Below, in pieces: positions 5,970 to 59,110 of a stretch of 64,000 nt of DNA (position 1 is its first letter; each line of letters begins with the position of its first letter). Below the pieces are notes generated by a model. That model was not told where the DNA came from, searched no databases, and saw only the letters and a program-made list of their open reading frames with translations. The translations under genes were made by a program, and so were the position numbers. This stretch comes from Candidatus Methanophagaceae archaeon (GTDB lineage Archaea; Halobacteriota; Syntropharchaeia; Alkanophagales; Methanospirareceae). The stretch is from positions 135,265-199,264 of the forward strand of contig PQXB01000001.1 in NCBI GenBank assembly GCA_003194425.1, given 5' to 3'.

Positions 5970-7235
5970 GTGAAATTGAGAGGGAGTGAAAAAATGTTTT
6001 CGTCGCAGGAGGAACAGGAGGAACAGGAGGAACAGGAGGAGCAGGAGGAACAGGAGGAGGTTTTTGAGAAAGAGCGGAGATATTTGATGCCGACCTACAA
6101 GCGATCGCGGGTCGTGCTGAAATCCGGAAGAGGGGCGGTGGTGAAGGATTTCTCGGGTCGCGAGTACTTGGACTGCGTCGCTGGAATTGCGGTGAACGCG
6201 GTCGGGCACTGCCACCCCGCGGTAGTGAAAGCGTTGAGAGAGCAGGCGGAACGGCTCATTCACACCTCAAATTTGTTTTACACCGAGCCACAAGTAAAAC
6301 TCGCGGAGAAACTTTCGGGACTAACAGGACTGGAGAAGGCGTTCTTCTGCAATTCCGGTGCAGAGAGCGTGGAGGCGGCGTTGAAGTTAGCGTGCAAAGA
6401 AACAGGGAAAACCGGGTTCGTTGCCGCGGAGGGAAGTTTTCACGGCAGAACGCTCGGCTCGCTGAGTGCTACTTTTGACCCGAAGTTCAGAGGCGTGTTT
6501 GAACCTTTGCTTTTGCCTCGGGTGGGGAACGGTGTGAAATTCGTGCCGTACGGCGACGCAGAGGCGATTCGAGCTGCGACTGACGACAAAACCGCTGCGG
6601 TCATTTTGGAGCCTGTTCAGGGCGAGACAGGCGTGATTATTCCCCCCGCGGGCTACTTAAAAGAGGTGCGGGAAATCTGCGACGAGAAAAGGGTCTTGCT
6701 GATTTTTGATGAAATTCAGACCGGGTTCGGTCGTACTGGAAAGTGGTTCTGCAAGGAGCACGAGGGCGTGGAGCCGGATATTTTGACACTCGCGAAGGCG
6801 TTGGGAGCAGGGTTTCCAATCGGCGCGATGCTCGCACGAGAGGGCTTGGAATTTGAAGCCGGCGAGCACGGCTCGACCTTCGGCGGCGGTCCGCTGGCGT
6901 GCTCCGCCGCGCTGGCGTCTGTAAAAGTGATTGAGCGGGAGGGGCTGGTGGATCGGTCGAGAGTGCTGGGTGCGTATTTTTTGGAGCGGTTTGCGGCTGA
7001 GTCCACGGCTGCAGGCTCGGACTCCAACCCTGCAGTGAAGGAAGTGCGGGGCAAGGGGCTGATGATTGGGATTGAATTGGCGAAGCCCTGCGGGGAAGTG
7101 GTCGAGCGGGCGTTAGAAAGAGGCGTTCTGGTAAATTGCACTGCAGAGAGAGTGGTAAGGCTGGTGCCGCCGCTGGTCGTAAGCAAAGAGCAGTTGGACA
7201 AGGTGATTTCGGTCCTGCTCGAATTCATCAAGTAA
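5970..7235 (+). CDS. Class III aminotransferase (acetylornithine/LysJ-type). N-terminal (EEQ)n low-complexity; start uncertain.
   Basis: Conserved DEIQTGFGRTGKWF and TFGGGPLACSAAL motifs. Start may be at the internal ATG 5994 or 6087. Confidence 0.8.
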   Translation: MKLRGSEKMFSSQEEQEEQEEQEEQEEQEEVFEKERRYLMPTYKRSRVVLKSGRGAVVKDFSGREYLDCVAGIAVNAVGHCHPAVVKALREQAERLIHTSNLFYTEPQVKLAEKLSGLTGLEKAFFCNSGAESVEAALKLACKETGKTGFVAAEGSFHGRTLGSLSATFDPKFRGVFEPLLLPRVGNGVKFVPYGDAEAIRAATDDKTAAVILEPVQGETGVIIPPAGYLKEVREICDEKRVLLIFDEIQTGFGRTGKWFCKEHEGVEPDILTLAKALGAGFPIGAMLAREGLEFEAGEHGSTFGGGPLACSAALASVKVIEREGLVDRSRVLGAYFLERFAAESTAAGSDSNPAVKEVRGKGLMIGIELAKPCGEVVERALERGVLVNCTAERVVRLVPPLVVSKEQLDKVISVLLEFIK

Positions 7236-7276
7236 TTTTAATATGTCTAATTAAAATATAATTTAGAGGTTGTAAA

Positions 7277-7987
7277 ATGGAATACGAGATAATTGGGGAT
7301 AATCTCCAGATGGTCGTTGTAAAGATCTCTTCTGGAGAGATGGTTTACGGAGAGGCGGGTGCAATGATTTATATGAGCGAGAATATGGAGATGAACGCGA
7401 AGGCGAAGGGCGGGTTTCTGAAAGGGGTGATGCGAAAATTTGCGGGAGAGTCATTTTTTATGACAGAATTCTCGCCGAAAGGATACGGTTTCGTGGCTTT
7501 TGCCGGCAACGCACCAGGGCGGATAAAAGCGATTGAACTCAGGGGCAACGAGTTCATTGCAATGAACGATGCTTTCTTGTGCGCTCAGGAGGGCGTTGAA
7601 CTCGAGATCAAGGCTGCCTTATCAGCGAAACAGAGAGGGGGGTTGCTGTTCGGTGGAGGACGACCATTTATTCTGGAACGGCTGGGTGGAAGGGGGTCTG
7701 CGTTTATCCACGCCTGCGGCGATTTTGTAGAGATTGACCTTGCACATGGCGAAGTTGTGAAGGTGGACACCGGCTCTATCGTAGGATTCGAGAGCAGCGT
7801 GAGTTACGACATCGTGAGGGCAGGGAACGTAAAGACAATGCTCTTCAGTGGCGAACACTCCTATTTGACTACCTTGACCGGTCCAGGTCACGTGATTCTG
7901 CAGTCAATGACCATGCCGAACTTGGCGGCAGCGCTCAGACCTTTCCTGCCTTCATCTTCAGGAACATCCGAAGGATCCGTAGAGTAG
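7277..7987 (+). CDS. AIM24/TIGR00266 family protein
   Basis: Family-typical MEYEIIG...LQMVVVKI start and beta-rich repeats of DUF124/AIM24 proteins. Confidence 0.55.
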   Translation: MEYEIIGDNLQMVVVKISSGEMVYGEAGAMIYMSENMEMNAKAKGGFLKGVMRKFAGESFFMTEFSPKGYGFVAFAGNAPGRIKAIELRGNEFIAMNDAFLCAQEGVELEIKAALSAKQRGGLLFGGGRPFILERLGGRGSAFIHACGDFVEIDLAHGEVVKVDTGSIVGFESSVSYDIVRAGNVKTMLFSGEHSYLTTLTGPGHVILQSMTMPNLAAALRPFLPSSSGTSEGSVE

Positions 7988-8097
7988 GATCCGAGAGTAG
8001 GTAGTCGCAGTTCAGTATCGAGAGGTTGCAGGGGGTTGAGGTCAAAACAAAAGAAGCACGTTCCGATTTTCAAACGAGCGTCAGGGCAGAAACGCTT

Positions 8098-9045
8098 TTA
8101 TCTTTTTTCTTTTCTTATTTGAGGGTAGAAAAAAACCGCCAACGGAACGAGAAAGAGGACGCCAATCACGATTTTGCCGACGACCGAGCCTGAATTGAAG
8201 AGAATAAAAAAAACAGGCTCTTCCTCACGCTGCATCTCAAACAGGCAGGGAAAAACATCTCCCAAGAACTCTTTTGTTACATTGAGAATCCCGTCGTAAG
8301 AGCCTTCGGGTGGTGCGAGTGCCGAGACGCGAATCATTGTAAAGTTGGCACTGTGAAACGGCTCCTCCTTCACATAAAAATAGAGGACGACCCGCCGGTC
8401 TGTTACATTTCCGCTTTCTCCCCCCCTCTTTACGACGACGAGCTTCTTTACCGAGACTGTGCCGTTGAAGTAGCCTAACTCTCCTTTTCTGCTCTCGAAA
8501 GTGGAGTACAGAGGTCTCCCTGCCCAACTCACATTCTGCACAAACACCTCCTCTTTCCCCACCTCCTCAATCTCGTAGCCAAGAGCGGGGTAGCAGACGA
8601 TAGGGGAGTGGAAGCTTGAACGAGCGTTGGACTGCAGAATGAGGAGATCTATTGAGTAGTATGATTTTGGCTGTGAGTAAGCACGCATTAGCATCACATC
8701 CGCACCCAGAGTTTCTGCAACACCCGTAGTGTTGTAATCTGGTTCTAAGGCGTTCCACTCGTCAATCTGCTTTGGAAATGCCAGCATATGCTCGTTGTTC
8801 CCGAAATCCTGCAGCGTTTGAACGAACATTGCATCTTCTGTAGCCTGCGAGAGCTCGGTGTCAATTGTCTTGATGCCCTTGGCTAAAATCATTGAAGGCG
8901 TCGAGAAGAGCAGGATAATTACGAGTGCGAACGAAAGCAGTCCAATAATCCTTGAATATTCCACGAAGAAATCTTTCAGCTCCTCCCTCTCTTCCTCTTT
9001 TTCCTTCTTCTTCTCTCCTTCTCTCCCCTCCTTCTCTTTTGCCAC
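8098..9045 (-). CDS. Bitopic membrane protein: KE-rich cytosolic N-terminus, TM, ~250-aa extracytoplasmic domain with many N-x-S/T sequons, C-terminal TM plus basic tail. Paralog of 57919-58839.
   Basis: N-terminal TM IIGLLSFALVIILLF; six or more NxS/T sequons; C-terminal GKIVIGVLFLVPLAVFFYPQIRKEKR. Clear paralogy to the ORF at 57919-58839. Confidence 0.6.
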   Translation of the reverse strand: MAKEKEGREGEKKKEKEEEREELKDFFVEYSRIIGLLSFALVIILLFSTPSMILAKGIKTIDTELSQATEDAMFVQTLQDFGNNEHMLAFPKQIDEWNALEPDYNTTGVAETLGADVMLMRAYSQPKSYYSIDLLILQSNARSSFHSPIVCYPALGYEIEEVGKEEVFVQNVSWAGRPLYSTFESRKGELGYFNGTVSVKKLVVVKRGGESGNVTDRRVVLYFYVKEEPFHSANFTMIRVSALAPPEGSYDGILNVTKEFLGDVFPCLFEMQREEEPVFFILFNSGSVVGKIVIGVLFLVPLAVFFYPQIRKEKR

Positions 9046-9220
9046 TTCAAACCTTACCTCCTCTCTCTAAACTTCTTTTCGTCTAAATGTTTAAACACCT
9101 GCTAAACACTTCACTTGCAAATTCGCTGTTCTTAAAACCTTTTTAAAATAAAAAAAATGAGAGGAGCAGAAAATCTGAAAAAATCTCCTCTCTTCTCCTC
9201 TTTGGTCCTCTTTTATTGTC

Positions 9221-9925
9221 CTATTTCCTGTCCTCTTTTCTGCGGTTGTACAGCACGAATCCAGCGAGTGCGAGCAGTCCGGTACCAAACAAGACCACCG
9301 TCGGCAGCTCTGGCGTTGGGTAGGGGTCGCCACAGGTTGGAGAAGACACAGTGGTTGCTGAGGAGCCCTCTGTATTTATGTACGCCTCCGCACCATCCCC
9401 AGCCATCGAGAGCCTAAGAGCGAGATAATCTCCCTGTGGCACTGTAAACAATGGACAACTCACAACAAAATGGCTAGCACCATCACTGCAGACATTTACA
9501 ATTCCTACGATTGATTTTTCGCACTTTTCGTCGAACTCTCCTGTGCTGTGGTCGAGGATTCCAACTTTCGCTGTAACCGTTTCGGTACTATCGAGATAAC
9601 CACTACACTCCGCATCAATAGGCTCATAATCGAGATGTACAACCCAGTTTCCCGCGCAGAAGGAAACCTCGCATTGAGCCGATTCGTTTGCACTCCAGGT
9701 AAATGAGTCGGTCTCATTTAACCAGAAATCATTTGAAGTTCCCGTTCTCGCTCCTCTCGTCATCCAATAATTTGCTCCAGCTGGAACTTCTGTTTCATTT
9801 GTAGTTGGGTACCACGTGATGCTCACCGCGCTCGCCGTTCCGACCACCGAAACCAGCACTACCGCTGCTACCAAAAAACTTACAACCGCTTTTTTCGTTT
9901 CTGTTTTCGTTTCTGTTTTGTTCAT
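9221..9925 (-). CDS. Secreted protein with a PEL-CTERM-like tripartite sorting signal
   Basis: Signal peptide, Cys-rich domain, C-terminus PTPELPTVVLFGTGLLALAGFVLYNRRKEDRK (P-E-L + TM + RRK). Shares GD(Y/W)LA(L/V)RLS with 38791-39513. Confidence 0.65.
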   Translation of the reverse strand: MNKTETKTETKKAVVSFLVAAVVLVSVVGTASAVSITWYPTTNETEVPAGANYWMTRGARTGTSNDFWLNETDSFTWSANESAQCEVSFCAGNWVVHLDYEPIDAECSGYLDSTETVTAKVGILDHSTGEFDEKCEKSIVGIVNVCSDGASHFVVSCPLFTVPQGDYLALRLSMAGDGAEAYINTEGSSATTVSSPTCGDPYPTPELPTVVLFGTGLLALAGFVLYNRRKEDRK

Positions 9926-10065
9926 TTTTTCTTTTTTTCACCTCCTAACTTTTTTTCTTTTTTTCCTTCGCTTCCCTCTTTTTCCTCCTCCTCTTTTTCT
10001 ACTCTCTTTTCTTCCTCTGCCCTCTCCCTTTTTGGCTCGTTCTTACCGAGGGCAATTAGTATATT

Positions 10066-10734
10066 CTATCTCACTCTATAAAAATGTTTTCGATATTTTA
10101 GCGTTATTTTCAAGATTTCAGGGGAATTTAGGTTGCTAAATGTCTCGAGGGCGGGATTTTTTTCCCGCACCCTGCTCACGGGGAGGAGGCAAACGTTCTT
10201 GAGCCGCGGGAGGAGAGAAGAGAGTTTCTTCTCGCCGCACTCCGCCGCTGCCTTCGTCGCTGCCAGCGTCGGCTCTTTTTTGTAAACCGCGTGCAACGGC
10301 TCCAGCAACCCGTTCTCCCAACACGGCACTACCGCGTCGCAGCAGCCTGCCACTGCAGTCTCGAAGAGAAGTTCTACAACAGCCTCGCAGACAAAAGGCA
10401 TGTCGCAGCCAAGAACGAAGCAGTAGGCAGACGAAGCCCGCTCCAAGCCCGACTGAACGCCTGCAAGCGGACCAAAACCCTTCAGCGTGTCAAAGACAAA
10501 GACGATTTTTGTTTTTGTAGCTGTTTTAAGAGCGTTCTTAATTCGTTCGCCCTGCACTTCGTCGCGTGCTGCCACGATTATTTCGTCCGCCACGCCCGAG
10601 ATTCTCTCGATCGCGTGCTGCAGGAGCGGTTTGTTGTTTAAGCAGGCGAGGCATTTCTCGACGTGGGGATCTTGAAATCTTTGGCTCTTCCCGCCCGCGA
10701 GAATGACCGCGGTCTTTTTTCTTTCGCTTTGCAT
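10066..10734 (-). CDS. mobA: Molybdenum cofactor guanylyltransferase MobA-like NTP transferase
   Basis: AVILAGGKSQRF N-terminal NTP-transferase motif; ~200 aa. Confidence 0.6.
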   Translation of the reverse strand: MQSERKKTAVILAGGKSQRFQDPHVEKCLACLNNKPLLQHAIERISGVADEIIVAARDEVQGERIKNALKTATKTKIVFVFDTLKGFGPLAGVQSGLERASSAYCFVLGCDMPFVCEAVVELLFETAVAGCCDAVVPCWENGLLEPLHAVYKKEPTLAATKAAAECGEKKLSSLLPRLKNVCLLPVSRVREKNPALETFSNLNSPEILKITLKYRKHFYRVR

Positions 10735-10810
10735 TGGTTTTTAACTCTAAATTAAACTTAAGAAAGAAGAGGGTTTTTAAGGTGTAACGAAAGAATAAAA
10801 GGGAGGAAAG

Positions 10811-11128
10811 ATGGAAGCGAGGGAAGTAATATCTTCGGTTGTAATGGTTTTTTCTACCTTCGTGCTGGCGTACAAATGGGTGTACAAGTACAAGGCAGGA
10901 GACCCAGTGGTCGTGCTCTCGTCGGTGGTTTTGATGGGGATGTTAGCGGTTCTGTTTCTAAGTACAGCAGAGCGGTTAAAGAGGCTGGAGGAGGAACTAA
11001 ACGAGAAAGAGCGGTCTTTGCGAGTGAGCATGCAGTCAGTCGAGGAGGAGGTGCGGGAGAAGGTGAGTGCTGCGACGAGGCGGTTGGACGAGGTTAGGGA
11101 GGAGATTGTAAGGAGGGGGTACCGGTAA
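10811..11128 (+). CDS. Small membrane protein (2 TM plus coiled coil), hypothetical
   Basis: Hydrophobic N-terminus followed by an EE/RR-rich helix. Confidence 0.35.
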   Translation: MEAREVISSVVMVFSTFVLAYKWVYKYKAGDPVVVLSSVVLMGMLAVLFLSTAERLKRLEEELNEKERSLRVSMQSVEEEVREKVSAATRRLDEVREEIVRRGYR

Positions 11129-11139
11129 AAAGACATCTG

Positions 11140-11730
11140 ATGTGGAAAGAGGTAGTGGCGAAGTTTGAGGGTCTGCCCTCGCAGAAGAGGGTCGTTGAAC
11201 TGCTCTTGGAGCGAGGGTTTCAAGTCAGTGCGGAGGGCAGTGCGGAGGGCAGTGCGAAGGGCAGTGCGAAGGGCAGTGCGGAAGGAAGGGTGAAGGGAAG
11301 AATTGTCTCGGGCGGGATTGAAATTCCGCACACGCAGGTGGCGAACGAGACAGGCGTGGACAGGCGGGTAGTAGACGAGACGGTGAGGCGGATTTTGAGG
11401 GACGCGGGGCTGCGGGAGATTTTTGAAAATATCAGGTCGGTCGCGTTTCTTGCGGAGGTCGCGCCTTTGCTGGGGCTGTGTGTGGTTGTAATTTACCCAA
11501 CGGACGCGAGGGAGAAGGGGATTCTCGGCGAGGTCGCTACGGTGATTGGAAAGCGCGGGGTTAGCATTCGTCAGGCAGTCAGCGACGACCCCTACCTCGT
11601 GGACGACCCGAAACTCACGATCATCGCGGATAAAAATATTCCAGGCGACTTAATTGCGGAAATCGGGCGGATAAAGAGCGTGAAAAGCGTGCAGATTCTC
11701 TCGCCCCGTCTCCCGTCCCGCAGAGCGTAA
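11140..11730 (+). CDS. ACT-domain regulator of amino-acid metabolism (archaeal COG2150-like) with a (SAEG/SAKG)5 insertion
   Basis: N-terminal HTH-like region; C-terminal ACT-like VVVIYPTDAREKGILGEVATVIGKRGVSIRQ. 12-nt x5 repeat at ~11232-11290. Confidence 0.5.
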   Translation: MWKEVVAKFEGLPSQKRVVELLLERGFQVSAEGSAEGSAKGSAKGSAEGRVKGRIVSGGIEIPHTQVANETGVDRRVVDETVRRILRDAGLREIFENIRSVAFLAEVAPLLGLCVVVIYPTDAREKGILGEVATVIGKRGVSIRQAVSDDPYLVDDPKLTIIADKNIPGDLIAEIGRIKSVKSVQILSPRLPSRRA

Positions 11731-11734
11731 AAAA

Positions 11735-12655
11735 GTGCACATTGGAATTGTCACCTGTGAGATTTTAAGAAGCGAGATTGCAGCGGTAATTGAAAAATCG
11801 GGCGTGGAGAATGTTTTTTTCGTGCTGCCCGAGTTCGAGCCTGAGACCTGCAGTTTGGCTCTAAACATAACATCTAAAAGAATGAACGCTCGGTTTTCGA
11901 GCGAGGCAAAAACGAAAACAGGGAGAAGAACGAAAAGAAGAACGAAATTAAAGATAAAAGAGAAGACAATTGCGGGGATAAAAAGGGAGATTCGTGAGAG
12001 GCGGATTAGGAATTCTGTTATCGTTAAGGTCTTGGATTTGAGGATGCACGACTACCCGGACAAACTGCTGGCTGAGGTTGCAGGCTGGGTGAAAAAGATG
12101 AGTTCGGTTTTAGGCGTGGATTTCGTGTTGCTGGGCTACGGCTTGTGCGGAAGCACGGCGAGCGAGGTGGAGCGAGTGGTGGTCGACGAGGCAGAGGTGC
12201 CTGTAGTAATTCCTCGGGACGGCGGAGGCGGCGACAGCGGGCGGGACAGCGGAGGCGGCGGCGAAATACTAAACAACTGCGTCGAAATTGCACTTGGCAG
12301 GGAACGGGTTCGGGAACTGCTGAAGGAGGAGGTCGGGACTTTTTTTATGACTCCCGCAGGGGCGTCGATCATAAAAGAACCTCAAGTAATCTTGGAGTCG
12401 TCTATAAATATTAGGGCAGGCAGGCTGAACCGAAGTGCTACTTGCGCTGCTACTGACACGCCAAAAATCGTAAAACTTATGAAGAACCACTACCGCAGGG
12501 TCGTGAAAATCTGCTACTCTGACGCCGACGAGAAGGACAGGGAGTACTCAAAGACGGTTGAGAAGTTCGCCAAGAAGTTCGGGCTTGAGGTAAAAGTCGA
12601 GCGTGGGTCGGCGAGAATTATGCTCGCGGCGTTGGAGGAAGCCCTCCAACCATAA
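11735..12655 (+). CDS. DUF1638-like protein (hypothetical) with low-complexity inserts
   Basis: MHIGIVTCEILRSEI start resembles DUF1638 proteins. Low-complexity KR-rich and GGGGDSGRDSGGGG inserts. Confidence 0.3.
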   Translation: MHIGIVTCEILRSEIAAVIEKSGVENVFFVLPEFEPETCSLALNITSKRMNARFSSEAKTKTGRRTKRRTKLKIKEKTIAGIKREIRERRIRNSVIVKVLDLRMHDYPDKLLAEVAGWVKKMSSVLGVDFVLLGYGLCGSTASEVERVVVDEAEVPVVIPRDGGGGDSGRDSGGGGEILNNCVEIALGRERVRELLKEEVGTFFMTPAGASIIKEPQVILESSINIRAGRLNRSATCAATDTPKIVKLMKNHYRRVVKICYSDADEKDREYSKTVEKFAKKFGLEVKVERGSARIMLAALEEALQP

Positions 12656-19872: not shown

Positions 19873-20625
19873 TTACCTCCTCTTCAAGCCCACACCAGCG
19901 AGCAGCCCGAAGAACAGCCCTGCCAAATGCGCCGTAAACGCAATCGGGTAGGCAGAGCCAATCATTAAGAAATTGAGCACCGCAAAAAGAATAACTACCA
20001 TCCACATCTCCAACGGCACCGGCAACGGAAAAATATACATCCGCATCCTCGGCATCAGCACCGCAAGCGCTCCGAAAACGCCGTACAACGCTCCGCTCGC
20101 TCCAAGCGACGGGTTAATCGCGGTTAGACCGTACACAAGCCCTGCAAAGATTCCCGAGCCGAAGAAGACGAGCAGGAACTTTGAACTGCCGATTTTTCGC
20201 TCCAGCACCGGCCCGAAGAAGACCAAAAAAAACATGTTGAAGAAAAGGTGCCAGAGACCGCCGTGTAGGAAAACGTGCGTTACCAGCGTCCAGGGTCGCT
20301 CTGAAATGTGTGCTGGCATCAAAACCAACTGCCTCTCGTAGCCCGGAACGAGTAGTTGCAGAGCGAAAGAGGCGGAAATGAGGAGCAGGAGCAGGTAAGA
20401 GTAGTTGTGAGAAAAAACGCCAAAATTCGTGCCAAAGTTCTTTCGAATTTCTTTTTTGTTTTCTTTTCTGCGTACCTCATCAAACCCAGACCCGACGCAC
20501 CAGTGCTTCTCGGGTGGCAGGTGCTCCTCGCAGAGGCTGTCGCCGCAGTATTTGCATTTCTGGGTCGCGGGTCTGCCGCAGACCGTGCACCGTGCTCGTG
20601 TTGCTCGTGTCGTCGTGCGTACCAT
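19873..20625 (-). CDS. Rhomboid family intramembrane serine protease with N-terminal zinc ribbon
   Basis: CTVCGRP...CKYCGDSLCEEH zinc ribbon; rhomboid GASGALYGVFG (Ser) and AHLAGLFFG (His). Confidence 0.7.
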   Translation of the reverse strand: MVRTTTRATRARCTVCGRPATQKCKYCGDSLCEEHLPPEKHWCVGSGFDEVRRKENKKEIRKNFGTNFGVFSHNYSYLLLLLISASFALQLLVPGYERQLVLMPAHISERPWTLVTHVFLHGGLWHLFFNMFFLVFFGPVLERKIGSSKFLLVFFGSGIFAGLVYGLTAINPSLGASGALYGVFGALAVLMPRMRMYIFPLPVPLEMWMVVILFAVLNFLMIGSAYPIAFTAHLAGLFFGLLAGVGLKRR

Positions 20626-38790: not shown

Positions 38791-39513
38791 TTGAAAAGTA
38801 TGAAGAAAAATGTGAAATTGATGGAGGGAGTGATTTTTGGGTTGTTGGTGTTGGCGAGTGCGAGCATGCAGGTGACAGTGGTAGCGGCGGAGACAACGCA
38901 GACTTGGTTTCTTTCGTCAGAGGGTAAGCCAAGCGGTGCGCCGACCGCGAACGACGGACTAACACACGCGAAGGACAATCTGATGCAGAAAGATTCAAGA
39001 ACTGGTACAGGTTCGTATTTTACGCTTCCTTATGATAAGGTCGCGTGGTTTTATGCGGACACAGGGGCAGAATGTGGCTTGGGGTTTGGAGAGTACTCTT
39101 GGAGAGCACACATTCGTACAGGGGAAAAAGTAGACGGGGATGAAGTAGGTTCTAATCTTACCGTTGAAATCTGTAGGTTGGAGAAAGACACAGGAAATGT
39201 AACTGTTCTGGCAAGCCACACAGAGACATTGACAGCACAAGAGACGCATTTTGACTGGAACATTTCTTGCACAGACAACGGAACCACAACTCAGGATTTC
39301 AGCACTGGCGACTGGTTAGCCGTTCGATTGTCGTGGGACTGCACGGACGGTCTTAGAGTAGACTACAAAGCCGAGGCGGGTCTAGATTCCTTCATCGAAA
39401 GCCCCTCAACAGACCCCGGCTACCCTGCCCCTGAACTGCACTCCCTCGTCCTCTTCTCGACAGGCTTGCTCGCACTCGCGGGCTACAGTCTGCTGACAAA
39501 GAGAAGGGGATAA
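38791..39513 (+). CDS. Secreted protein with PEL-CTERM-like sorting signal (paralog of 9221-9925)
   Basis: Signal peptide; C-terminus DPGYPAPELHSLVLFSTGLLALAGYSLLTKRRG. Confidence 0.65.
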   Translation: MKSMKKNVKLMEGVIFGLLVLASASMQVTVVAAETTQTWFLSSEGKPSGAPTANDGLTHAKDNLMQKDSRTGTGSYFTLPYDKVAWFYADTGAECGLGFGEYSWRAHIRTGEKVDGDEVGSNLTVEICRLEKDTGNVTVLASHTETLTAQETHFDWNISCTDNGTTTQDFSTGDWLAVRLSWDCTDGLRVDYKAEAGLDSFIESPSTDPGYPAPELHSLVLFSTGLLALAGYSLLTKRRG

Positions 39514-39557
39514 AAGACGGAGAAGTTAAGTCAGGAGCTTACCGGTTTTAACCTAAC

Positions 39558-39600
39558 CGGTCGAGTCCGGCGGTCGAGTCCGGCGGTCGAGTCCGGCGGA
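39558..39600. repeat. 13-nt tandem repeat x3.3 (cggtcgagtccgg) upstream of the nuclease gene
   Basis: Exact copies, self-complementary ends (ccgg...ccgg). Confidence 0.75.
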
Positions 39601-39687
39601 TCGGAGGCTTGCGTGCGAAGCCGAGCTGAGGCTTACGAGCAACGCTGTGCTGGAGAACTCTCCAGCTCTTCAGAAGGAAAAAGAAAA

Positions 39688-40041
39688 ATGAAACCAACCT
39701 ACTGGTACAAGGCGAAATTGGGGAGGGTCGTGGACGGCGACACTTTGGACTTGGTAATTGACCTCGGATTTTATGTGCAGTTGCGGGAGCGAGTTCGGTT
39801 GGCGGGAATTGACACGCCTGAAATTCACGGCGTTCCCAAGAGCAGCGAGGAGTACAAGAAGGGACTGGAAGCGAAGGAATTCGTCGAGCGACGGCTGAGC
39901 GAGAACGAAAATGAAATGGTGATTGAGACAAGGAAGCGCGGAAAATGGCGACGCTGGATTGCGAAAATCTACCTTGAAGATTCCGAAAAAACCTTGAACG
40001 ACGAATTAGTTGAGCAGGGTCTAGCTGTGGTCGTGTCGTAG
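39688..40041 (+). CDS. Thermonuclease (SNase-like) family protein
   Basis: GRVVDGDTLDL...RLAGIDTPE SNase motifs. Start placed at the ATG preceded by a GA-rich SD (ORF-track start 39613). Confidence 0.65.
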   Translation: MKPTYWYKAKLGRVVDGDTLDLVIDLGFYVQLRERVRLAGIDTPEIHGVPKSSEEYKKGLEAKEFVERRLSENENEMVIETRKRGKWRRWIAKIYLEDSEKTLNDELVEQGLAVVVS

Positions 40042-40074
40042 CAGAAGAAGAAGAAGGAAATAGAAGAAGGAAAT

Positions 40075-40866
40075 TCAAAAATAATACGGAGCGACTAAAA
40101 AGAGAATGACATTTATAATTCCGTGAGAAAGGCTTATTCCAAAAATCGAACCTGTCTGCTCCCGAATTACTGAATACAAAAAGCCAACGGAAAAAGCAAG
40201 AACGCAGTCCAAAACCGCGAGGTTGCCAATGTGAAGCACGCTGAAGAGAATTGAGACAAAAAAAATCCCCCACCTCCTGCTCATCAGTTTCCGGGCGTTG
40301 TGTTGAATCAAGCCCCGAAACACGAGCTCTTCCAAGAAACCCGTGCAGACAACGAAAACTGCTGCTGCAACGACGAAATTCGCGGCTAAGCCTGCCCCTT
40401 CCCCCGCCGGCAGGGGAGCGGGCTTCAAAATCTGAAATTCTATTATTCCTGCAGGAAAGGCAAGGAGAACCACGCCTGCGTTAATTGGCACGTGCTTCAA
40501 CTTTGGTAACGAAAATCCGAGGTCTTTTAGGCGGAGTCCTTGCACCAACATTCCGGTGAAGGTTGCGAGAAATATCGGAATGGAAATGAAAAGGAAGCCA
40601 AAAATCTTACTAACTTGAGCGAAAGGCATTGAGAGGCTTAGAATTCGAATAAGCGGTGCGAGAAGAAGAACCACGAGAAACTGGGACAGATTTTTCTCGG
40701 TCTCTGTTTTGGTTTCTCGTGCAGAATAGAAAAGCAGTGCGAAGAGGATGGTTGCGTGAAAAGCGATGCCTGCTTTTGGGTGGTAACACGTCAGTGTCTC
40801 TGCGCTTGTTACCAGAAGCAAGAAAACCGCACAGATGTGTTTGATTTTTAAGGCGATTCTTTTCAT
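40075..40866 (-). CDS. CPBP family (CAAX-protease-like) intramembrane metalloprotease
   Basis: EELVFRG (motif 1), FSVLH (motif 2), HGIIN (motif 3); polytopic. Confidence 0.75.
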   Translation of the reverse strand: MKRIALKIKHICAVFLLLVTSAETLTCYHPKAGIAFHATILFALLFYSARETKTETEKNLSQFLVVLLLAPLIRILSLSMPFAQVSKIFGFLFISIPIFLATFTGMLVQGLRLKDLGFSLPKLKHVPINAGVVLLAFPAGIIEFQILKPAPLPAGEGAGLAANFVVAAAVFVVCTGFLEELVFRGLIQHNARKLMSRRWGIFFVSILFSVLHIGNLAVLDCVLAFSVGFLYSVIREQTGSIFGISLSHGIINVILFLVAPYYF

Positions 40867-40904: not shown

Positions 40905-41831
40905 ATGAAAAACGCAGAGGGAGAAGACGAGGCAGCAGCAGAAGAGGAGGAAGAAGAGGAGAAGAGGTTGAGCGTTGTTCTGGCTGTGGGAATGGGATTT
41001 TTTATCGTTCTTACCGCGGTGGTTGCGTTGCTGCTTGCGGCGCCGTTTGAAGCCGCTGGCGTAAAAGCGTTTGAGAACTCGGAGTCGGTCTGGACCCCGC
41101 TCTATTTCCTTGCTCTCGTTGTCGGCTTCACGGTGGTTATTCTCGTAGTGCTAAAACTCGGGGACAGGGGCGAGAGGCTCCTCTATTTTTTGATGCTTGG
41201 TGCGGTGGCGGTGACGCTGTACTATGTTTTTGCGGTTCTCTTTCCTGCTCCTCTCGGCAGTCTCCCGCTGGTCAGCACCCTCGCGGTCTGTCTGCTGCTC
41301 TACAAATTTCCAGAGTGGTACGTTCTCGACGCGACGGGTCTACTAATCGGGGGCGGAGCGGCGGCGATGTTTGGCATTTCGCTCGGCGTGGCTTCTGTCG
41401 TGCTGTTGTTGGTGATTTTGGCGGTTTACGACGCGATTTCGGTTTACAAGACGAAGCATATGATTGTGTTGGCGGAAAGCATCGTTGAAATGCGAGTTCC
41501 GATTCTTTTTGTCCTGCCGAGGCGGCGGGGGTTCTCTTTGGTGCGGGGGGGACGAGGGGCAAAGTCCCACAAGAGCAGCAGGATGGACGAGGCGTTTTTA
41601 ATGGGGCTTGGGGACGCGATTATTCCGACGATGCTGGTCGTGTCTGCGAATTTAATGCCCGCGTTCGCTCGCTACTGGGGTTTAATAAACGCGCCTGCTT
41701 TGGGTGCGCTGTTAGGGACACTTGCGGGCTACGGGGCGCTGGTCAGAATTGCGGGCAGAGGGACGCCGCACGCGGGGCTGCCGTTTCTCAATTTAGGTGC
41801 GATTCTCGGGTTTGTCGTTGGGTTGGCTTGA
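40905..41831 (+). CDS. Presenilin/signal-peptide-peptidase family (A22) intramembrane aspartyl protease
   Basis: YD (LAVYDAISVY), GLGD (LMGLGDAIIP) and PAL (NAPALGAL) motifs in consecutive TM helices. Confidence 0.7.
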   Translation: MKNAEGEDEAAAEEEEEEEKRLSVVLAVGMGFFIVLTAVVALLLAAPFEAAGVKAFENSESVWTPLYFLALVVGFTVVILVVLKLGDRGERLLYFLMLGAVAVTLYYVFAVLFPAPLGSLPLVSTLAVCLLLYKFPEWYVLDATGLLIGGGAAAMFGISLGVASVVLLLVILAVYDAISVYKTKHMIVLAESIVEMRVPILFVLPRRRGFSLVRGGRGAKSHKSSRMDEAFLMGLGDAIIPTMLVVSANLMPAFARYWGLINAPALGALLGTLAGYGALVRIAGRGTPHAGLPFLNLGAILGFVVGLA

Positions 41832-42089
41832 CAACTTCCTCACGCCGTCTGCCAACCCGTGAGCGTAATTTATGCAGCCGAAGGCGGTAAAGAAATCCCC
41901 TTTTTCAAGGTAGTATTTCGCGTCCTCAAAATATGCCTTCGCAAGGCTCAACACCTCTTCTCTTGCTCCTGCAGCACTCGCAGCACCTGCAGCACTCGCA
42001 GCACCTGCAGCACTCGCAGCACCAAGCGACAACGCTTCAAAAAGTGCGATGTCTTTCTTTATCCTACCCGCTTCTTCGTTCAACTTCAC
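41793..42089 (-). CDS. DUF357-like small archaeal protein with an (AASAAG)3 repeat
   Basis: FTAFGCINYAHGLAD motif. 18-nt x3 repeat at ~41965-42020. Convergent 39-nt overlap with the presenilin gene. Confidence 0.4.
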   Translation of the reverse strand: MKLNEEAGRIKKDIALFEALSLGAASAAGAASAAGAASAAGAREEVLSLAKAYFEDAKYYLEKGDFFTAFGCINYAHGLADGVRKLSSQPNDKPENRT

Positions 42090-43129
42090 GATCCTATTTT
42101 AAGTTGCCACGTCTTATTTTTCTTCCCATTCTTTTTTATAGCATCTTCCTCTTCCAGACCCTTAAACTCTAACAAGAATTCGCGGATCCGCCTCTCCGCC
42201 AATTTCACATATTCTTCGCCTGTCTCGTAGCCAACATAATGGCGTCGGGTTTTTATCGCCGCTATTCCCGTCTGCCCGCTCCCCGCGAAAGGGTCTAAAA
42301 CAACCTCGCCCTCGAAGGTGTAAAGTTGAATCAGCCTGTAAGGAAGTTCCACAGGGAACGGTGCTGGGTGTCCAACCCTACGAGCAGATTCCGCAGGGAA
42401 CGTCCAAACGCTTTTAGTAAACTCAAGAAACTCCTCCTTTGAGATTGTGCTTTTTCTTCTTCTTTTCTCGTTCTTGCTCTCTCCTCGGCTAAACCCGCTT
42501 TTAGAAAAGACCAAAATATATTCGTGAATGTCCCGCAGCGTGGGATTAGCAGCAGAAAGCCAGCTCCCCCACGCCGTTGAAGGGCTCGCACTCGCGGCTT
42601 TGTTCCAAATGATTTCCCCTCGCATCAAAAACCCTAAACCGAGCAGGTCCTCAAGCACAAAAGCGTGAAGAGGAATGTACGGCTTTCTTTCTAAATTCGC
42701 GATGTTTACGCAGGCTCTACCGCCGGGCACGAGCACCCTGAAGACCTCTTTCCAAACCGTTCTTAAAAAATTTCTGTATTCTTCAAGCGTTAAATTTTCG
42801 TCGTATTCTTTGCCCGCGTTGTAGGGCGGCGAAGTGACCATTAAATGAACGCTGTCATCTGGCAACTCGTCCATCTGTTCGCTCGATTTACAGAAGATTT
42901 TATCCAACAACTGCGGTGGAATGCGATTTTCCAGAAATTGCACTTTCTTTTCTTTTTCCCCTGGCAAACTTTCGTATAATTTGCTGGCATAAAACGCGGT
43001 GGAATTATGATTTATTCGACCGGGCGAGCCAAACGAGCTTGTTTGCGTCCCTCTTTTTCTTTGACTGTTTGTCATTGTATAATAAAGAGGATTTTGAAAA
43101 ACCCCCGAAAACGAGTGAAAATGCCACAA
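42086..43129 (-). CDS. Beta-class DNA methyltransferase (N4-cytosine or N6-adenine), apparently orphan
   Basis: Motif IV SPPY (VTSPPYNAG) precedes motif I DPFAGSGQTG. 4-nt overlap with the downstream DUF357 gene. Confidence 0.8.
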   Translation of the reverse strand: MWHFHSFSGVFQNPLYYTMTNSQRKRGTQTSSFGSPGRINHNSTAFYASKLYESLPGEKEKKVQFLENRIPPQLLDKIFCKSSEQMDELPDDSVHLMVTSPPYNAGKEYDENLTLEEYRNFLRTVWKEVFRVLVPGGRACVNIANLERKPYIPLHAFVLEDLLGLGFLMRGEIIWNKAASASPSTAWGSWLSAANPTLRDIHEYILVFSKSGFSRGESKNEKRRRKSTISKEEFLEFTKSVWTFPAESARRVGHPAPFPVELPYRLIQLYTFEGEVVLDPFAGSGQTGIAAIKTRRHYVGYETGEEYVKLAERRIREFLLEFKGLEEEDAIKKNGKKNKTWQLKIGS

Positions 43130-43276
43130 AAGTATATAAAGAAGAGAGTGTTACGAGGAGTAAATCAAAATCCTCTAAAGTAAAATATTTCGCAGTCTTG
43201 AAATTTCCAAAAGGGGATTTTTGACGAAGCGGTGAAGCGTAGCGAAACCAAATACGCTCTGTTATACGCTGTGTCT

Positions 43277-43465
43277 TTATTGGACTTTCTTAACTTGCTT
43301 CCCCAACAATTTGATATATTCAAGAAAACTTAACCCTTCGAATTCCGCTTCCTTAGCAATAATTTTCCTCGCGATATGAACTTGCTGTAAAGCCGGGTCG
43401 TCTGGGAACTCCGCTTCCACCGCTCTTCTTATTTCCTCAATATCCTTCTCTTTGACCTTGCTCAT
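43277..43465 (-). CDS. Small protein downstream of the PIN gene (possible antitoxin)
   Basis: 62 aa, 15-nt gap to the PIN gene. Confidence 0.3.
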   Translation of the reverse strand: MSKVKEKDIEEIRRAVEAEFPDDPALQQVHIARKIIAKEAEFEGLSFLEYIKLLGKQVKKVQ

Positions 43466-43480
43466 ATTTTCCCCCCCTTC

Positions 43481-43945
43481 CTATAACAATTCCGCAGGTG
43501 TCATAATCTCTATTTGCCTCAGGTTATTTAAAGTATTTACCCTCCTCACTCTGTCTCTCGTTTTTCTCCTTACAATGTGCCTAAAGTTCCAACTCAAAAG
43601 ACAGTCTATCTCGTTTATCGCTGCGATAGCAATATGGTAGGCATCTTCAGGGTAACCCGCGGGAACTGCGTCATAGCGAATATATTCGCTCGCTACCCTT
43701 TCAACGTCGTCAGTTAAAGCGAGGAGTGAAAATTGCGCGACTGCATCCTTCATTTTGCTTCGGAGTTCTATGTCTGGGGTTCGTTCAATCTCGGCAACCG
43801 TAATTTCGGAGATGAAAGTCTCAAAGTTACCTTTTTCCGCGAAAAAAGATTCTGTGAGCGATTTCCTCTCCGGATTCCGCTCATCAAACCGTGCTGAAAT
43901 TACTGAGGTGTCTAAATACACTTTCCCTCTTCTTCTCAGTTTCAC
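43481..43945 (-). CDS. PIN-domain (VapC-like) toxin; GTG start
   Basis: Acidic residues at PIN positions (VYLDTSVI, ...EIE..., ...EDAYHIAIAAINEID...). Confidence 0.55.
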   Translation of the reverse strand: MKLRRRGKVYLDTSVISARFDERNPERKSLTESFFAEKGNFETFISEITVAEIERTPDIELRSKMKDAVAQFSLLALTDDVERVASEYIRYDAVPAGYPEDAYHIAIAAINEIDCLLSWNFRHIVRRKTRDRVRRVNTLNNLRQIEIMTPAELL

Positions 43946-44014
43946 TTTCCTTTACCTCTTAGGCATTGCATAACTTCGGTATCCACTCGAGTTCACACAT
44001 CCTCAAAATAAGTT

Positions 44015-44323
44015 TTATAGTCCCGTTGCATATTTTACACTCCCTAAAAGGTACGGACGAAGTCCGGGTTTCACCGTCCCATAAATTACAAGGTCAACCC
44101 TGCATTTGAATAAATCCTCAAGGAAAAGTTTTAATTCAATGTAATTGTCAAACGTTTTCTTACTCTTCTCAAATTCCACCAGTATGTCTATGTCACTCCC
44201 TCTTCTTTGTTCATTTCTTACATACGAGCCAAATAATCCTATCTCTTTAACACCAAATCTTTTTATTATCGCTTTGCTCTCCTCGATTTTCTTCAATATT
44301 TCGTTTTCGTCCGCTGTTATCAT
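44015..44323 (-). CDS. Minimal nucleotidyltransferase (MNT) antitoxin-type protein
   Basis: LFGSYVRNEQRRGSDIDILVEF NTase motif. Confidence 0.75.
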   Translation of the reverse strand: MITADENEILKKIEESKAIIKRFGVKEIGLFGSYVRNEQRRGSDIDILVEFEKSKKTFDNYIELKLFLEDLFKCRVDLVIYGTVKPGLRPYLLGSVKYATGL

Positions 44324-44452
44324 TTCTTCTTCACCTCTTTGGCAGAGACGGGCATTTTATAGGGCAAAATGTCCAGAAGGACAAGCTACTTAAGTGAGCA
44401 TAGCGTAAACTTGTATTCTTATACTGTGCCACATCTCTTTATTAACCATAAC

Positions 44453-46285
44453 CTATGTGCGATCGATACACGTATATCTAAATTTCTTTTTTACATTCCA
44501 CACTTTCACTACTGCCCATGTTAAGGCAAGGAACCATGCACTTGGTGAGATTATCTTAGCAAGGATAGCTGAGATAATACACACAACAATAAAGAGCCCT
44601 ATTTCGCCACCCATTAAGAATTGTTTTTCTTTTTCGACCTTGGATTTACACATAGCAATTATTTCATTCTCCTTAATTTCATTCTCCTTATCCCTCTCCT
44701 TGTTTTTTACATCTGACTCAACAACACCTAACGCTTTTTTAATTTTGCCAACTTCTGTTAGACATTGATCTTCACGTTTTTTGTCTTCTGCTATATTAAA
44801 CACCTTGCTAAGTGATTCTAAACAATTTACTAATGTAATACTATCGCCGCATTGCTTAGCATAGCCACCAGCTACAAACAATCTTTTCTGAGCTAAATCC
44901 ATTCTACCTTTCCTTAGATAGCATAGCCCCGCAGCGTAGCTGGAAAGTCCAAGACAATAGGGGTCATAGGTTTTTCCAGAAAGCCATGAAGTCCAGAACA
45001 GAGGATCATTCCCCCTCCACTCCCACTCACCCGGAATCTTGGCAACCATCATGCTGAGGCACTCGATTACCTCCCTATGCCGTCCCATATTCATATACCG
45101 ATCTGCGGTTTTTAATAAGGATTCAAGTGCTTTTTCATACTCTTTTAGAACAATCAGCGCAAGCCCATGATTCTTTAGTGCCTTAGTAACAAGCCATGGA
45201 TCATCACTTCCACGGATGATCTTATCTGACTGTGCTGCAATAAAAGTAGCTTCCTCCTTTGATGGGTCAAGAAGAATTATTTCAGAAAAGAAGTTCTTCC
45301 ATGCCATTTCATTGATACCCGAAGCCCACCTGAGTAGGAATTTATTTTGGCGAGTTTTCATTTTATCTTCTTTACCCTGATCATATTTTTCGTCGGCGTC
45401 TTTATCTAAGAGTCTTGCAAAAATACTCTTTTGGTCCGCGCCTACTAATTTACAATTAGGGCATTCGCGACCAAAAGCTTTGATGTTACCTGTTAGGCTG
45501 ACCTCATTATTCCGCAGCACCCAATAAACACCCTTCGCCGTTTTGGCAGTGCTTAGGATTACTGGAAAAATATCATCGTCGTTGCCACTGTATCCTACAA
45601 TTAAAACGGTGTAGGATCTAAAGACGACACGAAGAAGGTCTGAAAGATCTTTTTTTAGATTAAGTCCTGCCAGTCTAAGAGTAAATATTATGCTTGCTTT
45701 TTCGTCTAAAGTGCCATGAAGCTTAACTACGGGCAGGTGTGACTCGTCTGACCCCTTATTATTCAAGGAGTTTAACAAGCCTTGACGCACAGAATTCACA
45801 TAAAGTTTGTATTTATTAAGGCTTACTTTCTCTAATGCTTTCTCTATATATGTATCAAAATTCGTTGTTAGGACAATTGGTATCTTATATTCACGAGCGA
45901 TATATGCGATATTGGAGTGGTTGCAATTGGGTATGCCCATATTCAAAATATCTATAAAACCAAAGAAATTCTCTCGAAGATTACTATGCAAAATTTGACA
46001 GAACAATTCAGGTTTTATTCTTTTTGTACGACAATTAATAAAACTGTGGAAGTCATCAAGTCCGCTGTGTGCACTTTTTGCGGAATCTATTACAAGATCC
46101 ATTAGCTCCTTCGAGAGTGGACAAGAGGAAGGAGGATCCTTAGAAATCCCCGCACCCACAAAGATAACAAGTTCATTCGACTTTGCTTTTTTAAGCTCTT
46201 GAACAGCACTCTCAAGATCAACCAACTCTCTTAATTCATTTTTTACCATATCTTGCCTTTGACAATTATCTTTTTCTTTAATCAT
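44453..46285 (-). CDS. SIR2_2-domain protein with TPR-like helical middle region and 1-2 C-terminal TM helices (candidate NADase effector)
   Basis: SIR2_2 motifs VIFVGAGIS, VLTTNFD, VVKLHGT. C-terminal IGLFIVVCIISAILAKIISPSAWFLALTWAVV. Confidence 0.7.
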   Translation of the reverse strand: MIKEKDNCQRQDMVKNELRELVDLESAVQELKKAKSNELVIFVGAGISKDPPSSCPLSKELMDLVIDSAKSAHSGLDDFHSFINCRTKRIKPELFCQILHSNLRENFFGFIDILNMGIPNCNHSNIAYIAREYKIPIVLTTNFDTYIEKALEKVSLNKYKLYVNSVRQGLLNSLNNKGSDESHLPVVKLHGTLDEKASIIFTLRLAGLNLKKDLSDLLRVVFRSYTVLIVGYSGNDDDIFPVILSTAKTAKGVYWVLRNNEVSLTGNIKAFGRECPNCKLVGADQKSIFARLLDKDADEKYDQGKEDKMKTRQNKFLLRWASGINEMAWKNFFSEIILLDPSKEEATFIAAQSDKIIRGSDDPWLVTKALKNHGLALIVLKEYEKALESLLKTADRYMNMGRHREVIECLSMMVAKIPGEWEWRGNDPLFWTSWLSGKTYDPYCLGLSSYAAGLCYLRKGRMDLAQKRLFVAGGYAKQCGDSITLVNCLESLSKVFNIAEDKKREDQCLTEVGKIKKALGVVESDVKNKERDKENEIKENEIIAMCKSKVEKEKQFLMGGEIGLFIVVCIISAILAKIISPSAWFLALTWAVVKVWNVKKKFRYTCIDRT

Positions 46286-47361: not shown

Positions 47362-47367
47362 CTCCTT

Positions 47368-48677: not shown

Positions 48678-48716
48678 TTTTTTATGTTATTTCCAAACTT
48701 GAGCTCGCACACACTT

Positions 48717-58839: not shown

Positions 58840-59075
58840 CTTCCACCCTCACCTCACCTAGGAATTCGATTAAAAGATTTGGTGACTTTACTGCTCCTAC
58901 TGCTCTTCATCGTAAATGTAGCAGTCGTGCTCCCTCCCGCTGACACCTTCTCTCTCGACAAATCCAACGCATTTTCACAAGGGCGAACCAAAAGTGAAGA
59001 CCTTTCTCCTCGCCTTTCCGAGACCAGACAGTGCATTTTACTAACCTTTTTTCACCTTAAAATATTTCCTCTTCA

Positions 59076-59110
59076 AAAAATAAAAACAGGGGGTGGAACG
59101 CCCCCCTTTT
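59076..59110 (-). terminator. Hairpin plus oligo-T terminator downstream of the beta-helix gene
   Basis: Minus-strand transcript ggggggcguuccaccccc followed by uguuuuuauuuuuu, 30 nt after the stop. Confidence 0.45.

Follow-up and report, generated by a model that had tools for sequence, protein, structure and literature searches.

The window analysed here, a 64-kb stretch of contig PQXB01000001.1 from a Candidatus Methanophagaceae archaeon, carries on its minus strand two copies of the same two-gene arrangement, in which a gene for a secreted protein with a PEL-type C-terminal sorting signal (a PEL-CTERM protein, here called the cargo) is followed by a gene for a membrane protein of about 310 amino acids (aa), which we call EpsI A or EpsI B after the family to which we assign it below. 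A first-pass annotation of the window had described both pairs, and all four open reading frames (ORFs) lie where it placed them:

EpsI A, 8098 to 9045, minus strand: 315 aa, GTG start with GGAGGT 8 nucleotides (nt) upstream
EpsI A motif, 8575 to 8613, minus strand: FHSPIVCYPALGY, reading F-H-x-P-x-x-C-Y-P-x-x-G-Y, in the ectodomain
Intergenic stretch of pair A, 9046 to 9220, minus strand: oligo-T runs right after the cargo A stop, GGAGGT before the EpsI GTG
Cargo A, 9221 to 9925, minus strand: 234 aa, with Sec signal peptide, beta jelly-roll mature domain and PEL-type C-terminal sorting signal
Cargo A sorting signal, 9224 to 9343, minus strand: SPTCGDPYPTPELPTVVLFGTGLLALAGFVLYNRRKEDRK
EpsI B, 57919 to 58839, minus strand: 306 aa
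EpsI B motif, 58405 to 58443, minus strand: FHPPIVCYPAMGY, the same invariant family motif
Intergenic stretch of pair B, 58840 to 59139, minus strand: TGTTTTTATTTTTTG run after the cargo B stop codon
Cargo B, 59140 to 60732, minus strand: 530 aa, with parallel beta-helix/NosD-like repeats, signal peptide and PEL-type sorting signal
Cargo B sorting signal, 59143 to 59247, minus strand: PCAPVPELPTVVLFSAGLLGVVGYFLLGQRRREKK

The gap between cargo and EpsI genes measures about 176 nt in pair A and about 301 nt in pair B. Over their full length the two EpsI proteins are 58% identical (E 3e-96), so that a paralogous partner does recur in the second pair, and both cargo proteins end in PEL-CTERM-type tails, as had been proposed from the first reading. 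Homology between the two cargos is confined to their last ~32 residues (53% identity, E 4e-10), a common stretch consisting of P-E-L-P-T-V-V-L-F, a Gly/Leu-rich helix and a basic tail. The observed arrangement of the pairs is far beyond chance. As for the cargo bodies, cargo B matches PF13229 at 253 bits and TIGR03804 with 8 repeats; these beta-helix repeats are ~23 residues each (NNTLTSNTANxNNxDGIxLDxS), and their number differs between relatives, the orthologue at locus L069 (2-979; 89%-related) having fewer. Cargo A matched no Pfam domain. Its AlphaFold2 (AF2) model, with a predicted local distance difference test score (pLDDT) of 76.5, has a beta jelly-roll fold; its resemblances, at E 1e-6 to 1e-4, are to TNF-like folds and to the domain at the C-terminus of CocE/NonD hydrolases, on which basis we take the predicted fold to be a generic surface or structural one. 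An Rfam scan of the whole window returned no RNA family.

The first reading had found the ~310-aa proteins not assignable to a known family and had proposed comparison with EpsI/DUF3485 by hidden Markov model (HMM) and HHpred; that comparison came out positive for both proteins, which almost certainly belong to the EpsI family. PF11984 (DUF3485/EpsI) matches EpsI A at 32.1 and EpsI B at 44.1 bits, above its gathering threshold of 26.1, with the match spanning only profile positions ~27-113 of 203. When a profile of archaeal-type proteins (87 homologues) was run against 1.84 billion representative proteins, only 455 were found at E <= 1e-3, but the profile reaches proteins of ~210 aa at E 1e-12 to 1e-10 over profile positions 64-246, six of which pass the EpsI model TIGR02914 (81-122 bits). 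An hhalign comparison with six classical EpsI proteins gave 99.6% probability (E 3e-24) and placed residues 25-270 onto positions 3-208 of 214. Across 56 archaeal-type EpsI proteins, down to 34% identity, the F, P, C, Y and G of the ectodomain motif are invariant and the H is kept in 55/56, while the core FHxPExC is invariant in six classical bacterial EpsI. Some bacterial exosortases carry a C-terminally fused EpsI domain, which matches positions ~280-486 of the XrtD model. It is with this EpsI part (positions ~298-395 of 486) that the window proteins align, their first transmembrane helix (TM1) lying on positions 276-300. The name is also already in public (NCBI) annotation, where homologues in Methanophagales, Methanosarcinales, Syntropharchaeia and Ca. 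Argoarchaeum are called "exosortase-associated EpsI family protein".

Hydropathy and the AF2 model bear out the bitopic topology described in the first-pass annotation: a K/E-rich N-terminus, TM1, a beta-rich ectodomain, a C-terminal transmembrane (TM) helix and a basic tail. In EpsI A, TM1 covers residues 33-55, the ectodomain ~58-270 and the C-terminal TM 286-306, in a model with pLDDT 81.4, a predicted template modelling score of 0.69 and low pLDDT at residues 178-190. The enrichment in sequons also holds up, with 6 N-x-S/T sites in each protein against ~1 expected from composition, and four or five of these positions recur in 22-48/56 homologues, several of them in 35-48. The ectodomain is predicted to be extracytoplasmic, and conserved sequons fit such an outside location. 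Compared with classical EpsI, the archaeal-type proteins have an insertion after TM1, a variable loop (178-190) and ~45 C-terminal residues that include the second TM. The N-terminus of EpsI A has 22 extra residues that most homologues lack; long K/E- or E-rich low-complexity N-terminal extensions are common in the window (5970-7235, 8098-9045, 40905-41831, 48717-50975, 62160-62969 and others) and appear, judging from these sequences, to be a lineage-wide trait.

A further PEL-CTERM gene lies between the two pairs:

Third PEL-CTERM cargo, 38791 to 39513, plus strand: 240 aa, small jelly-roll family, EpsI-type partner not adjacent, tail ESPSTDPGYPAPELHSLVLFSTGLLALAGYSLLTKRRG

Cargo A and this third cargo are paralogous (29% identity, E 6e-19), and the sorting signals of all three window cargos are nearly alike. 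They share a tripartite C-terminal architecture of P-E-[LA], a hydrophobic stretch of 14-24 residues and [RK]x0-2[RK] with 38 other P[ED]x-type proteins in related loci, the tail expression having given 41 matches in all, one of them (at L057) spurious. Within the cargo A family, the signal peptide and the S-P-x4-5-Y-P-x-P-E-L...GLLALAGF...RRK tail are near-identical among proteins that are 35-45% identical overall, and S-P-x4-5-Y-P-x-P-E-L ... G-L-L-A-L-x-G is invariant in the alignment. The PEL-CTERM consensus reads [AP]-[VI]-P-E-[LA]-x-T-[ILV]-[IV]-L-x-S-x-G-L-L-A-L-x-G-Y...[RK][RK], so that the third motif position is L or A and not P as in PEP-CTERM. The PEP-CTERM model TIGR02595 is nonetheless the closest-scoring one, just under its cutoff of 16, with 14.1 bits for the cargo A tail and 12.0 for the tail at locus L001 of a relative; it gave no match for the tails of cargo B or the third cargo. 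No tail matched PEF-CTERM or PGF-CTERM, the former giving nothing at E <= 10. On these scores, PEL-CTERM is a PEP-CTERM variant that lacks a model of its own. A match of the cargo A tail to LPXTG_anchor (18.1 vs 15.9) was discarded as an artefact of a TM plus basic tail, there being no LPXTG motif.

To place the pairs in context, one genome per GTDB species was scanned for EpsI loci, which yielded 57 loci, the best match to the window EpsI being 60% identical. Most come from anaerobic methanotrophic archaea of group 1 (ANME-1)/Methanophagales, GoM-Arc1 (Argoarchaeum, Ethanoperedens) and related metagenome-assembled genomes, and four from Dehalococcoidia. Neighbours were classed by phmmer and the tail expression around 59 EpsI genes of at least 200 aa, drawn from ANME-1, GoM-Arc1, Syntropharchaeia and a few Dehalococcoidia, with gene calls that are simple longest ORFs. 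In 37/59 cases EpsI lies no more than 300 nt downstream of an exosortase (Xrt) gene, with a typical gap of -37 to +60 nt; an Rce1-like CPBP protease gene, usually convergent, lies within 1 kb of 25/59, and a P[ED]x-CTERM ORF within 5 kb of 31/59. The PE[LA]-CTERM cargo is usually upstream of Xrt-EpsI and the CPBP gene downstream. From these counts the conserved module is cargo - exosortase - EpsI - CPBP, and the family hallmark of lying next to, or being fused with, an exosortase is found for the orthologues (37/59) and not in the window.

The linked exosortase of the relatives scores 126-139 bits with TIGR02602 (8TM_EpsH; cutoff 105.55) and passes the TIGR04178 signature, while it falls under the archaeosortase cutoffs (ArtC 45-48 vs 100, ArtE 28.7 vs 95); by these models it is a bacterial-type enzyme. 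An archaeosortase C/PEF-CTERM framework, which the first-pass annotation had implied, was accordingly given up: the tails have no PEF-CTERM match and are nearest to PEP-CTERM, and the linked enzyme is below the ArtC cutoff. CPBP neighbours occur, across these archaea and Dehalococcoidia, in L001, L006, L012, L013, L016-L018, L020-L024, L027, L032, L034, L037-L040, L045-L047, L051, L053, L054, L056, L067 and L068. The CPBP protease may remove the anchor peptide after cleavage, or it may carry out a further step of processing; no paper that we found links such proteases to exosortase loci, except as separate myxosortase systems.

A cargo gene followed by EpsI with no Xrt between them, as in the window, is a minority arrangement, but a recurrent one. 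It occurs at L019 and L042 in Zod_Metabat.342, a genome that has Xrt followed by EpsI at L039; at L025 in CSMAG_2436, which also holds L006 and L030; and at L041 in CSMAG_2415. Each of these three genomes has a cargo-linked EpsI copy as well as an Xrt locus. The order is Xrt-cargo-EpsI at L056 (Dehalococcoidia), and on the 12.5-kb contig L067, which carries three EpsI, two Xrt and one CPBP gene, a pair of a small cargo (232 aa) and EpsI stands beside a cargo, Xrt and EpsI unit. Many genomes retain 2-4 EpsI copies. In a neighbour-joining (NJ) tree, which has no support values, the cargo-linked copies (L019, L025, L041, L042, L056, L067, window A/B) are scattered among the Xrt-linked ones. Window EpsI A and EpsI B, together with the relatives nearly identical to them, form sister branches in this tree, which indicates a lineage-specific duplication; the next-closest homologues, P0003 and P0005, come from other samples.

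The same survey turned up a second, more divergent Xrt/EpsI clade, whose EpsI proteins are 34-41% identical to those of the window (L043, L046, L047, L049, L054, and L067 at 588-2233 and 8906-12133). Its cargo tails read A-P-V-P-D-[VLA]-S... in place of P-E-L, and in L067 the two lie next to each other. They look like sorting systems that run in parallel, each with its own signal. The two-TM 'archaeal-type' EpsI with an exosortase is found in Dehalococcoidia contigs as well (L053, L056, L057, L058), near the base of the NJ tree, a pattern that suggests inter-domain transfer in either direction. P0051 and P0306, labelled Nitrospiraceae, also carry archaeal-type EpsI, although Nitrospiraceae or 'bacterium' labels may be binning errors.

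The first reading had made its proposal depend on the pairing being conserved in related genomes, and this is what we find. Pair A is kept in L063 and L064, two contigs of the same species that match the window at 96-97% identity over 19 kb, and an EpsI A orthologue, P0008, is 96% identical and has the same context. EpsI B has orthologues at 99% (L005) and 89% (L069), and pair B is kept in L069, where EpsI is preceded at 300 nt by a beta-helix cargo that has the same tail. The ratio of non-synonymous to synonymous divergence (dN/dS) is 0.24 between A and B, where dS is above 1, and 0.20 between B and L005. Low dN/dS, together with the retention of all invariant residues, indicates that both EpsI paralogues are functional and old.

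The cargo behaves quite differently. Comparing the window with L063, flanks are 99-100% and EpsI A 96-100% identical, whereas window 9282-10156, which covers the mature domain of cargo A, its signal peptide and the 5' leader, is only 58-85% identical. In this hotspot dS is 0.35 and dN 0.29, against a flanking dS of 0.02-0.04, and the end of the gene that codes for the sorting signal is 95% identical. Such a profile suggests that the surface domain of cargo A is replaced in a cassette-like manner.

The surroundings of both pairs have been rearranged. An AIM24/TIGR00266 gene (7277-7987) is an insertion relative to L063/L064, in which an aminotransferase gene directly follows EpsI A (window 7217-8110). 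A rearrangement breakpoint at ~57310 closely follows EpsI B; past it, L005 has a full LPG_synthase_TM gene of 338 aa and the window only its 211-aa C-terminal part (57300-57935). The LPG_synthase_TM gene was considered as a member of the module: it adjoins EpsI in L005 and L069, on the opposite strand, and is truncated in the window. DUF3267, a membrane zincin (56304-57230), was rejected as a member, because the 99%-identical L005 diverges at ~57310 and has no DUF3267.

Taken together, we consider it very probable that the ~310-aa proteins take part in sorting the neighbouring cargo by an exosortase-type route. With rather less confidence, we lean towards a more specific account, namely that they are extra exosortase-partner EpsI subunits encoded beside cargo, that the exosortase is encoded elsewhere in the genome, and that their role is generic and not cargo-specific. 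The dedicated partner for the PEL-CTERM cargo that was proposed from the first reading is retained in one part: the partner would belong to the sorting machinery. Its dedication to the neighbouring cargo is not retained, given that EpsI normally adjoins exosortase (37/59) and that the body of cargo A is hypervariable and EpsI A conserved.

What might such a subunit do? From the family assignment and topology, from the way EpsI is linked in relatives to exosortase, cargo and CPBP, and from the conservation of the pairs and the purifying selection on both EpsI genes, we infer a physical interaction between EpsI and exosortase, an action on the sorting signal and a rationale in co-expression, as follows. 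After export, the C-terminal helix of the cargo would keep it in the membrane. An exosortase encoded elsewhere would cleave at the P-E-L motif and transfer the protein to a surface acceptor. EpsI would be anchored beside the enzyme by its TM helices, with TM1 as the counterpart of the linker TM in fused forms, and its ectodomain, with the invariant FHxPxxC at the outer face, would engage the conserved region of the sorting signal or the acceptor. Since EpsI A is constant, the cargo body variable and the three tails alike, contact between EpsI and cargo should involve the signal region or the acceptor, and EpsI copies would not recognise a particular cargo body. Duplicated EpsI genes would have left the Xrt-EpsI operon for sites behind cargo genes, where the supply of EpsI most likely tracks cargo expression.

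Several observations weigh against this account. A six-frame search of the 64-kb window with 46 Xrt sequences (tblastn) and the Xrt HMM found no exosortase gene or remnant, the best E being ~0.1-1, so its position outside the window is assumed rather than seen (a search for Xrt homologues gave 410 matches, none assignable to the window species). Both cargo-EpsI gaps contain oligo-T runs after the cargo stops, which weakens the co-expression argument. Oligo-T runs are archaeal termination signals; following both cargo stops, they imply that co-transcription with EpsI may be only partial. TIGR02914 scores 20.7 bits for EpsI A and 27.4 for EpsI B, below its cutoff of 42.8, and the NCBIfam models for type-V and type-B EpsI are also far under cutoff, which places the window proteins in a divergent subfamily outside the equivalog models as far as profile scores go. 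Comparison of the EpsI model with solved structures gave nothing below E 1e-3, and no sequence relative was found in the PDB; weak fold matches (3lyd, LpqN, MTC28 and Mog1, with probability 0.6-0.96 and TM 0.22-0.37) hint at a Mog1/PsbP-like binding module. Finally, although EpsI is found beside exosortases or fused behind them, no function has been established for it by experiment since its definition in 2006 (PMC1569441).

To these must be added the region around the third cargo, which is syntenic, from 38791 to 40866, with the canonical locus of L001 and L068 and ends in a protease gene:

Rce1-like CPBP intramembrane protease, 40075 to 40866, minus strand: PF02517 at 61.9 bits

In L001 and L068 the order is cargo, peptidase C1 cargo, Xrt, EpsI, an ORF of ~140 aa and CPBP. 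The third cargo of the window is 41% identical to L001 7022-7729 (E 3e-52) and orthologous to the cargo in front of exosortase-EpsI there, and the window CPBP is 62% identical to that of L001 (E 2e-110) with its motifs EExxxR, FxxxH and HxxxN intact. Between them the window has neither peptidase C1 cargo nor Xrt, EpsI or ~140-aa ORF, and the absence of Xrt and EpsI counts against our account as well; a thermonuclease-like gene (39613-40041) fills the gap. By synteny, 38791-40866 is an emptied exosortase-EpsI slot marked by cargo and CPBP. The window also has genes for two more intramembrane proteases, a rhomboid bearing a zinc-ribbon at its N-terminus (19873-20625; PF01694, 122 bits) and the presenilin homologue PSH (40905-41831; NF041679, 286 bits), the latter divergent to the CPBP gene; no link of either to the sorting system was found.

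There are a number of scenarios other than a generic exosortase partner that might explain the pairs. One is that each cargo-linked EpsI acts as a specificity adaptor, directing one exosortase to the neighbouring cargo class. Cargo-to-EpsI adjacency has arisen repeatedly and independently if the polyphyly in the NJ tree is taken at face value, both of the old paralogues (dS above 1) have been maintained, and the many genomes with 2-4 EpsI copies would also fit. Against it, the sorting signals of the three window cargos are nearly the same, and the mature domain of cargo A varies strongly between strains with no co-variation in EpsI A. Keeping in mind that the tree lacks support values, and that extra EpsI genes often come with extra Xrt and may belong to separate complete systems, we regard specificity adaptors as unlikely.

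A second scenario is that the pairs are by-products of decay, remnants of duplicated cargo-Xrt-EpsI units that have lost Xrt, in which EpsI is redundant or about to be lost and its adjacency to cargo has no functional meaning. Pair A does have the order of the canonical unit of small cargo, Xrt and EpsI minus Xrt, and breakpoints or indels adjoin both pairs (the AIM24 gene at 7277-7987 and ~57310). Against this, both EpsI ORFs are intact with all invariant residues and a dN/dS of 0.24 between them, each pair is still found in diverged relatives (89%, 96%), and the intergenic regions contain no Xrt remnant; we think decay very improbable.

Very improbable too, in our judgement, is a third scenario in which the exosortase has been lost from the lineage and EpsI, through the His and Cys of FHxPxxC and possibly with CPBP, itself processes, anchors or directs the PEL-CTERM cargo. 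It would account for an empty Xrt-EpsI slot whose cargo and CPBP gene remain with intact motifs, and for the lack of Xrt in 64 kb alongside an invariant FHxPxxC and three intact PEL-CTERM cargos. Yet 64 kb amounts to little of a genome, and Xrt is present in all the other genomes that have a cargo-linked or orphan EpsI and in which a second locus was seen. Classical EpsI is always associated with or fused to exosortase (PMC1569441), and what weak fold matches there are point to Mog1/PsbP/LpqN-like binding modules rather than to proteases. If this scenario were true, EpsI would be an active sorting component and not a passive exosortase accessory. That the ~310-aa proteins are ordinary sorted substrates with no functional tie to their neighbours is hardly credible: although they have a C-terminal TM and basic tail, in many members after an acidic/Pro stretch (EEP), they have neither a P-E-L motif nor a cleavable signal peptide, are homologous over their full length to a part of the machinery that occurs in bacteria as a fusion with exosortases, and keep a tight gene order with Xrt in 37/59 loci.

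Elsewhere in the window, a low-GC island at ~42000-48700 (GC 0.37-0.45 vs ~0.52 elsewhere) encodes membrane proteins without a family (46282-47361, 47368-47853, 47841-48677), one protein of 610 aa, and two small ORFs (43481-43945 and 44015-44323) that look like a toxin-antitoxin pair. From its composition it is probably a mobile or foreign segment.

The generic exosortase-partner account can be set beside systems that are already known. Exosortases are polytopic and cysteine transpeptidase-like, with a Cys/Arg/His site, and have been proposed to cleave PEP-CTERM signals, an equivalent role being played by ArtA in Haloferax (Haft 2023 preprint 10.1101/2023.06.07.544157). The closest counterpart is EpsH/EpsI of the methanolan cluster of Methylobacillus sp. 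12S (TIGR02602 + TIGR02914; Haft et al. 2006, PMC1569441). Homology in the EpsI domain runs from the N-terminal TM through the whole ectodomain, and FHxPxxC is shared; in the relatives EpsI lies directly downstream of a TIGR02602-type exosortase, and the cargo has a tripartite P-E-x/TM/basic signal. The differences are also considerable: the host is archaeal (ANME-1 and related), EpsI has an extra C-terminal TM with a basic tail and two insertions, no genes for exopolysaccharide (EPS) biosynthesis lie around, the signal is P-E-L/A, and CPBP is consistently associated. Moreover, the EpsI of the window comes in two copies, uncoupled from exosortase and coupled to cargo.

Among the fused exosortases (XrtD/VPLPA-CTERM TIGR04152, XrtW NF038142, XrtN, XrtO), it is to the EpsI part that the window proteins align, which supports a direct physical partnership of EpsI with the enzyme. 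Unlike in the fused forms, the EpsI of the window is a separate polypeptide with two TM anchors of its own and no exosortase domain nearby. Archaeosortases (ArtA/PGF-CTERM of Haloferax volcanii, ArtC/PEF-CTERM; Haft et al. 2012) follow the same logic, an archaeal surface protein with a motif/TM/basic signal being processed by an enzyme of the exosortase superfamily, but the enzyme of the relatives is bacterial-type and not one of ArtA-E, and the tails match neither PEF-CTERM nor PGF-CTERM. We know of no EpsI partner in archaeosortase systems. In the myxosortase systems a CPBP protease also adjoins sorting genes (MrtX, MrtS, MrtJ, MrtA; 10.1101/2023.06.07.544157; PMC11980579). The window CPBP, however, is under cutoff for all the Mrt models that it matches (MrtS 37.5 vs 130, MrtJ 34.4 vs 75, Mrt_core 23.6 vs 100), PEL signals lack an invariant Cys, and the module of the relatives includes an exosortase. 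With an exosortase in the same module, CPBP is likely to be accessory at most.

The system works like bacterial PEP-CTERM/XrtA-EpsI, not like archaeosortase/PEF-CTERM. The name EpsI could have been read from existing annotation, and a specialist reading that annotation would not be surprised. In the searchable literature, an ANME exosortase appears only in InterPro counts (Timmers et al. 2017, PMC5244752), no paper ties PEP-CTERM to ANME or alkane-oxidising archaea, and exosortase and EpsI both go unmentioned in the main comparative-genomics study of ANME. What the window adds is an EpsI that stands alone, is linked to cargo, recurs, and is conserved while the cargo body diversifies, which points to EpsI acting on the shared sorting signal. 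It offers a handle both on the role of EpsI and on how surface proteins are attached in ANME-1. This group has been reported to lack ArtA and ArtC as well as S-layer domains (Timmers et al. 2017, PMC5244752), so the exosortase-EpsI-CPBP-PEL-CTERM module may be its main route of surface attachment. With jelly-roll proteins, beta-helix proteins and a papain-like protease among the PEL-CTERM cargos, the module bears on how these uncultured methane oxidisers build their envelope and make contact with syntrophic partners.

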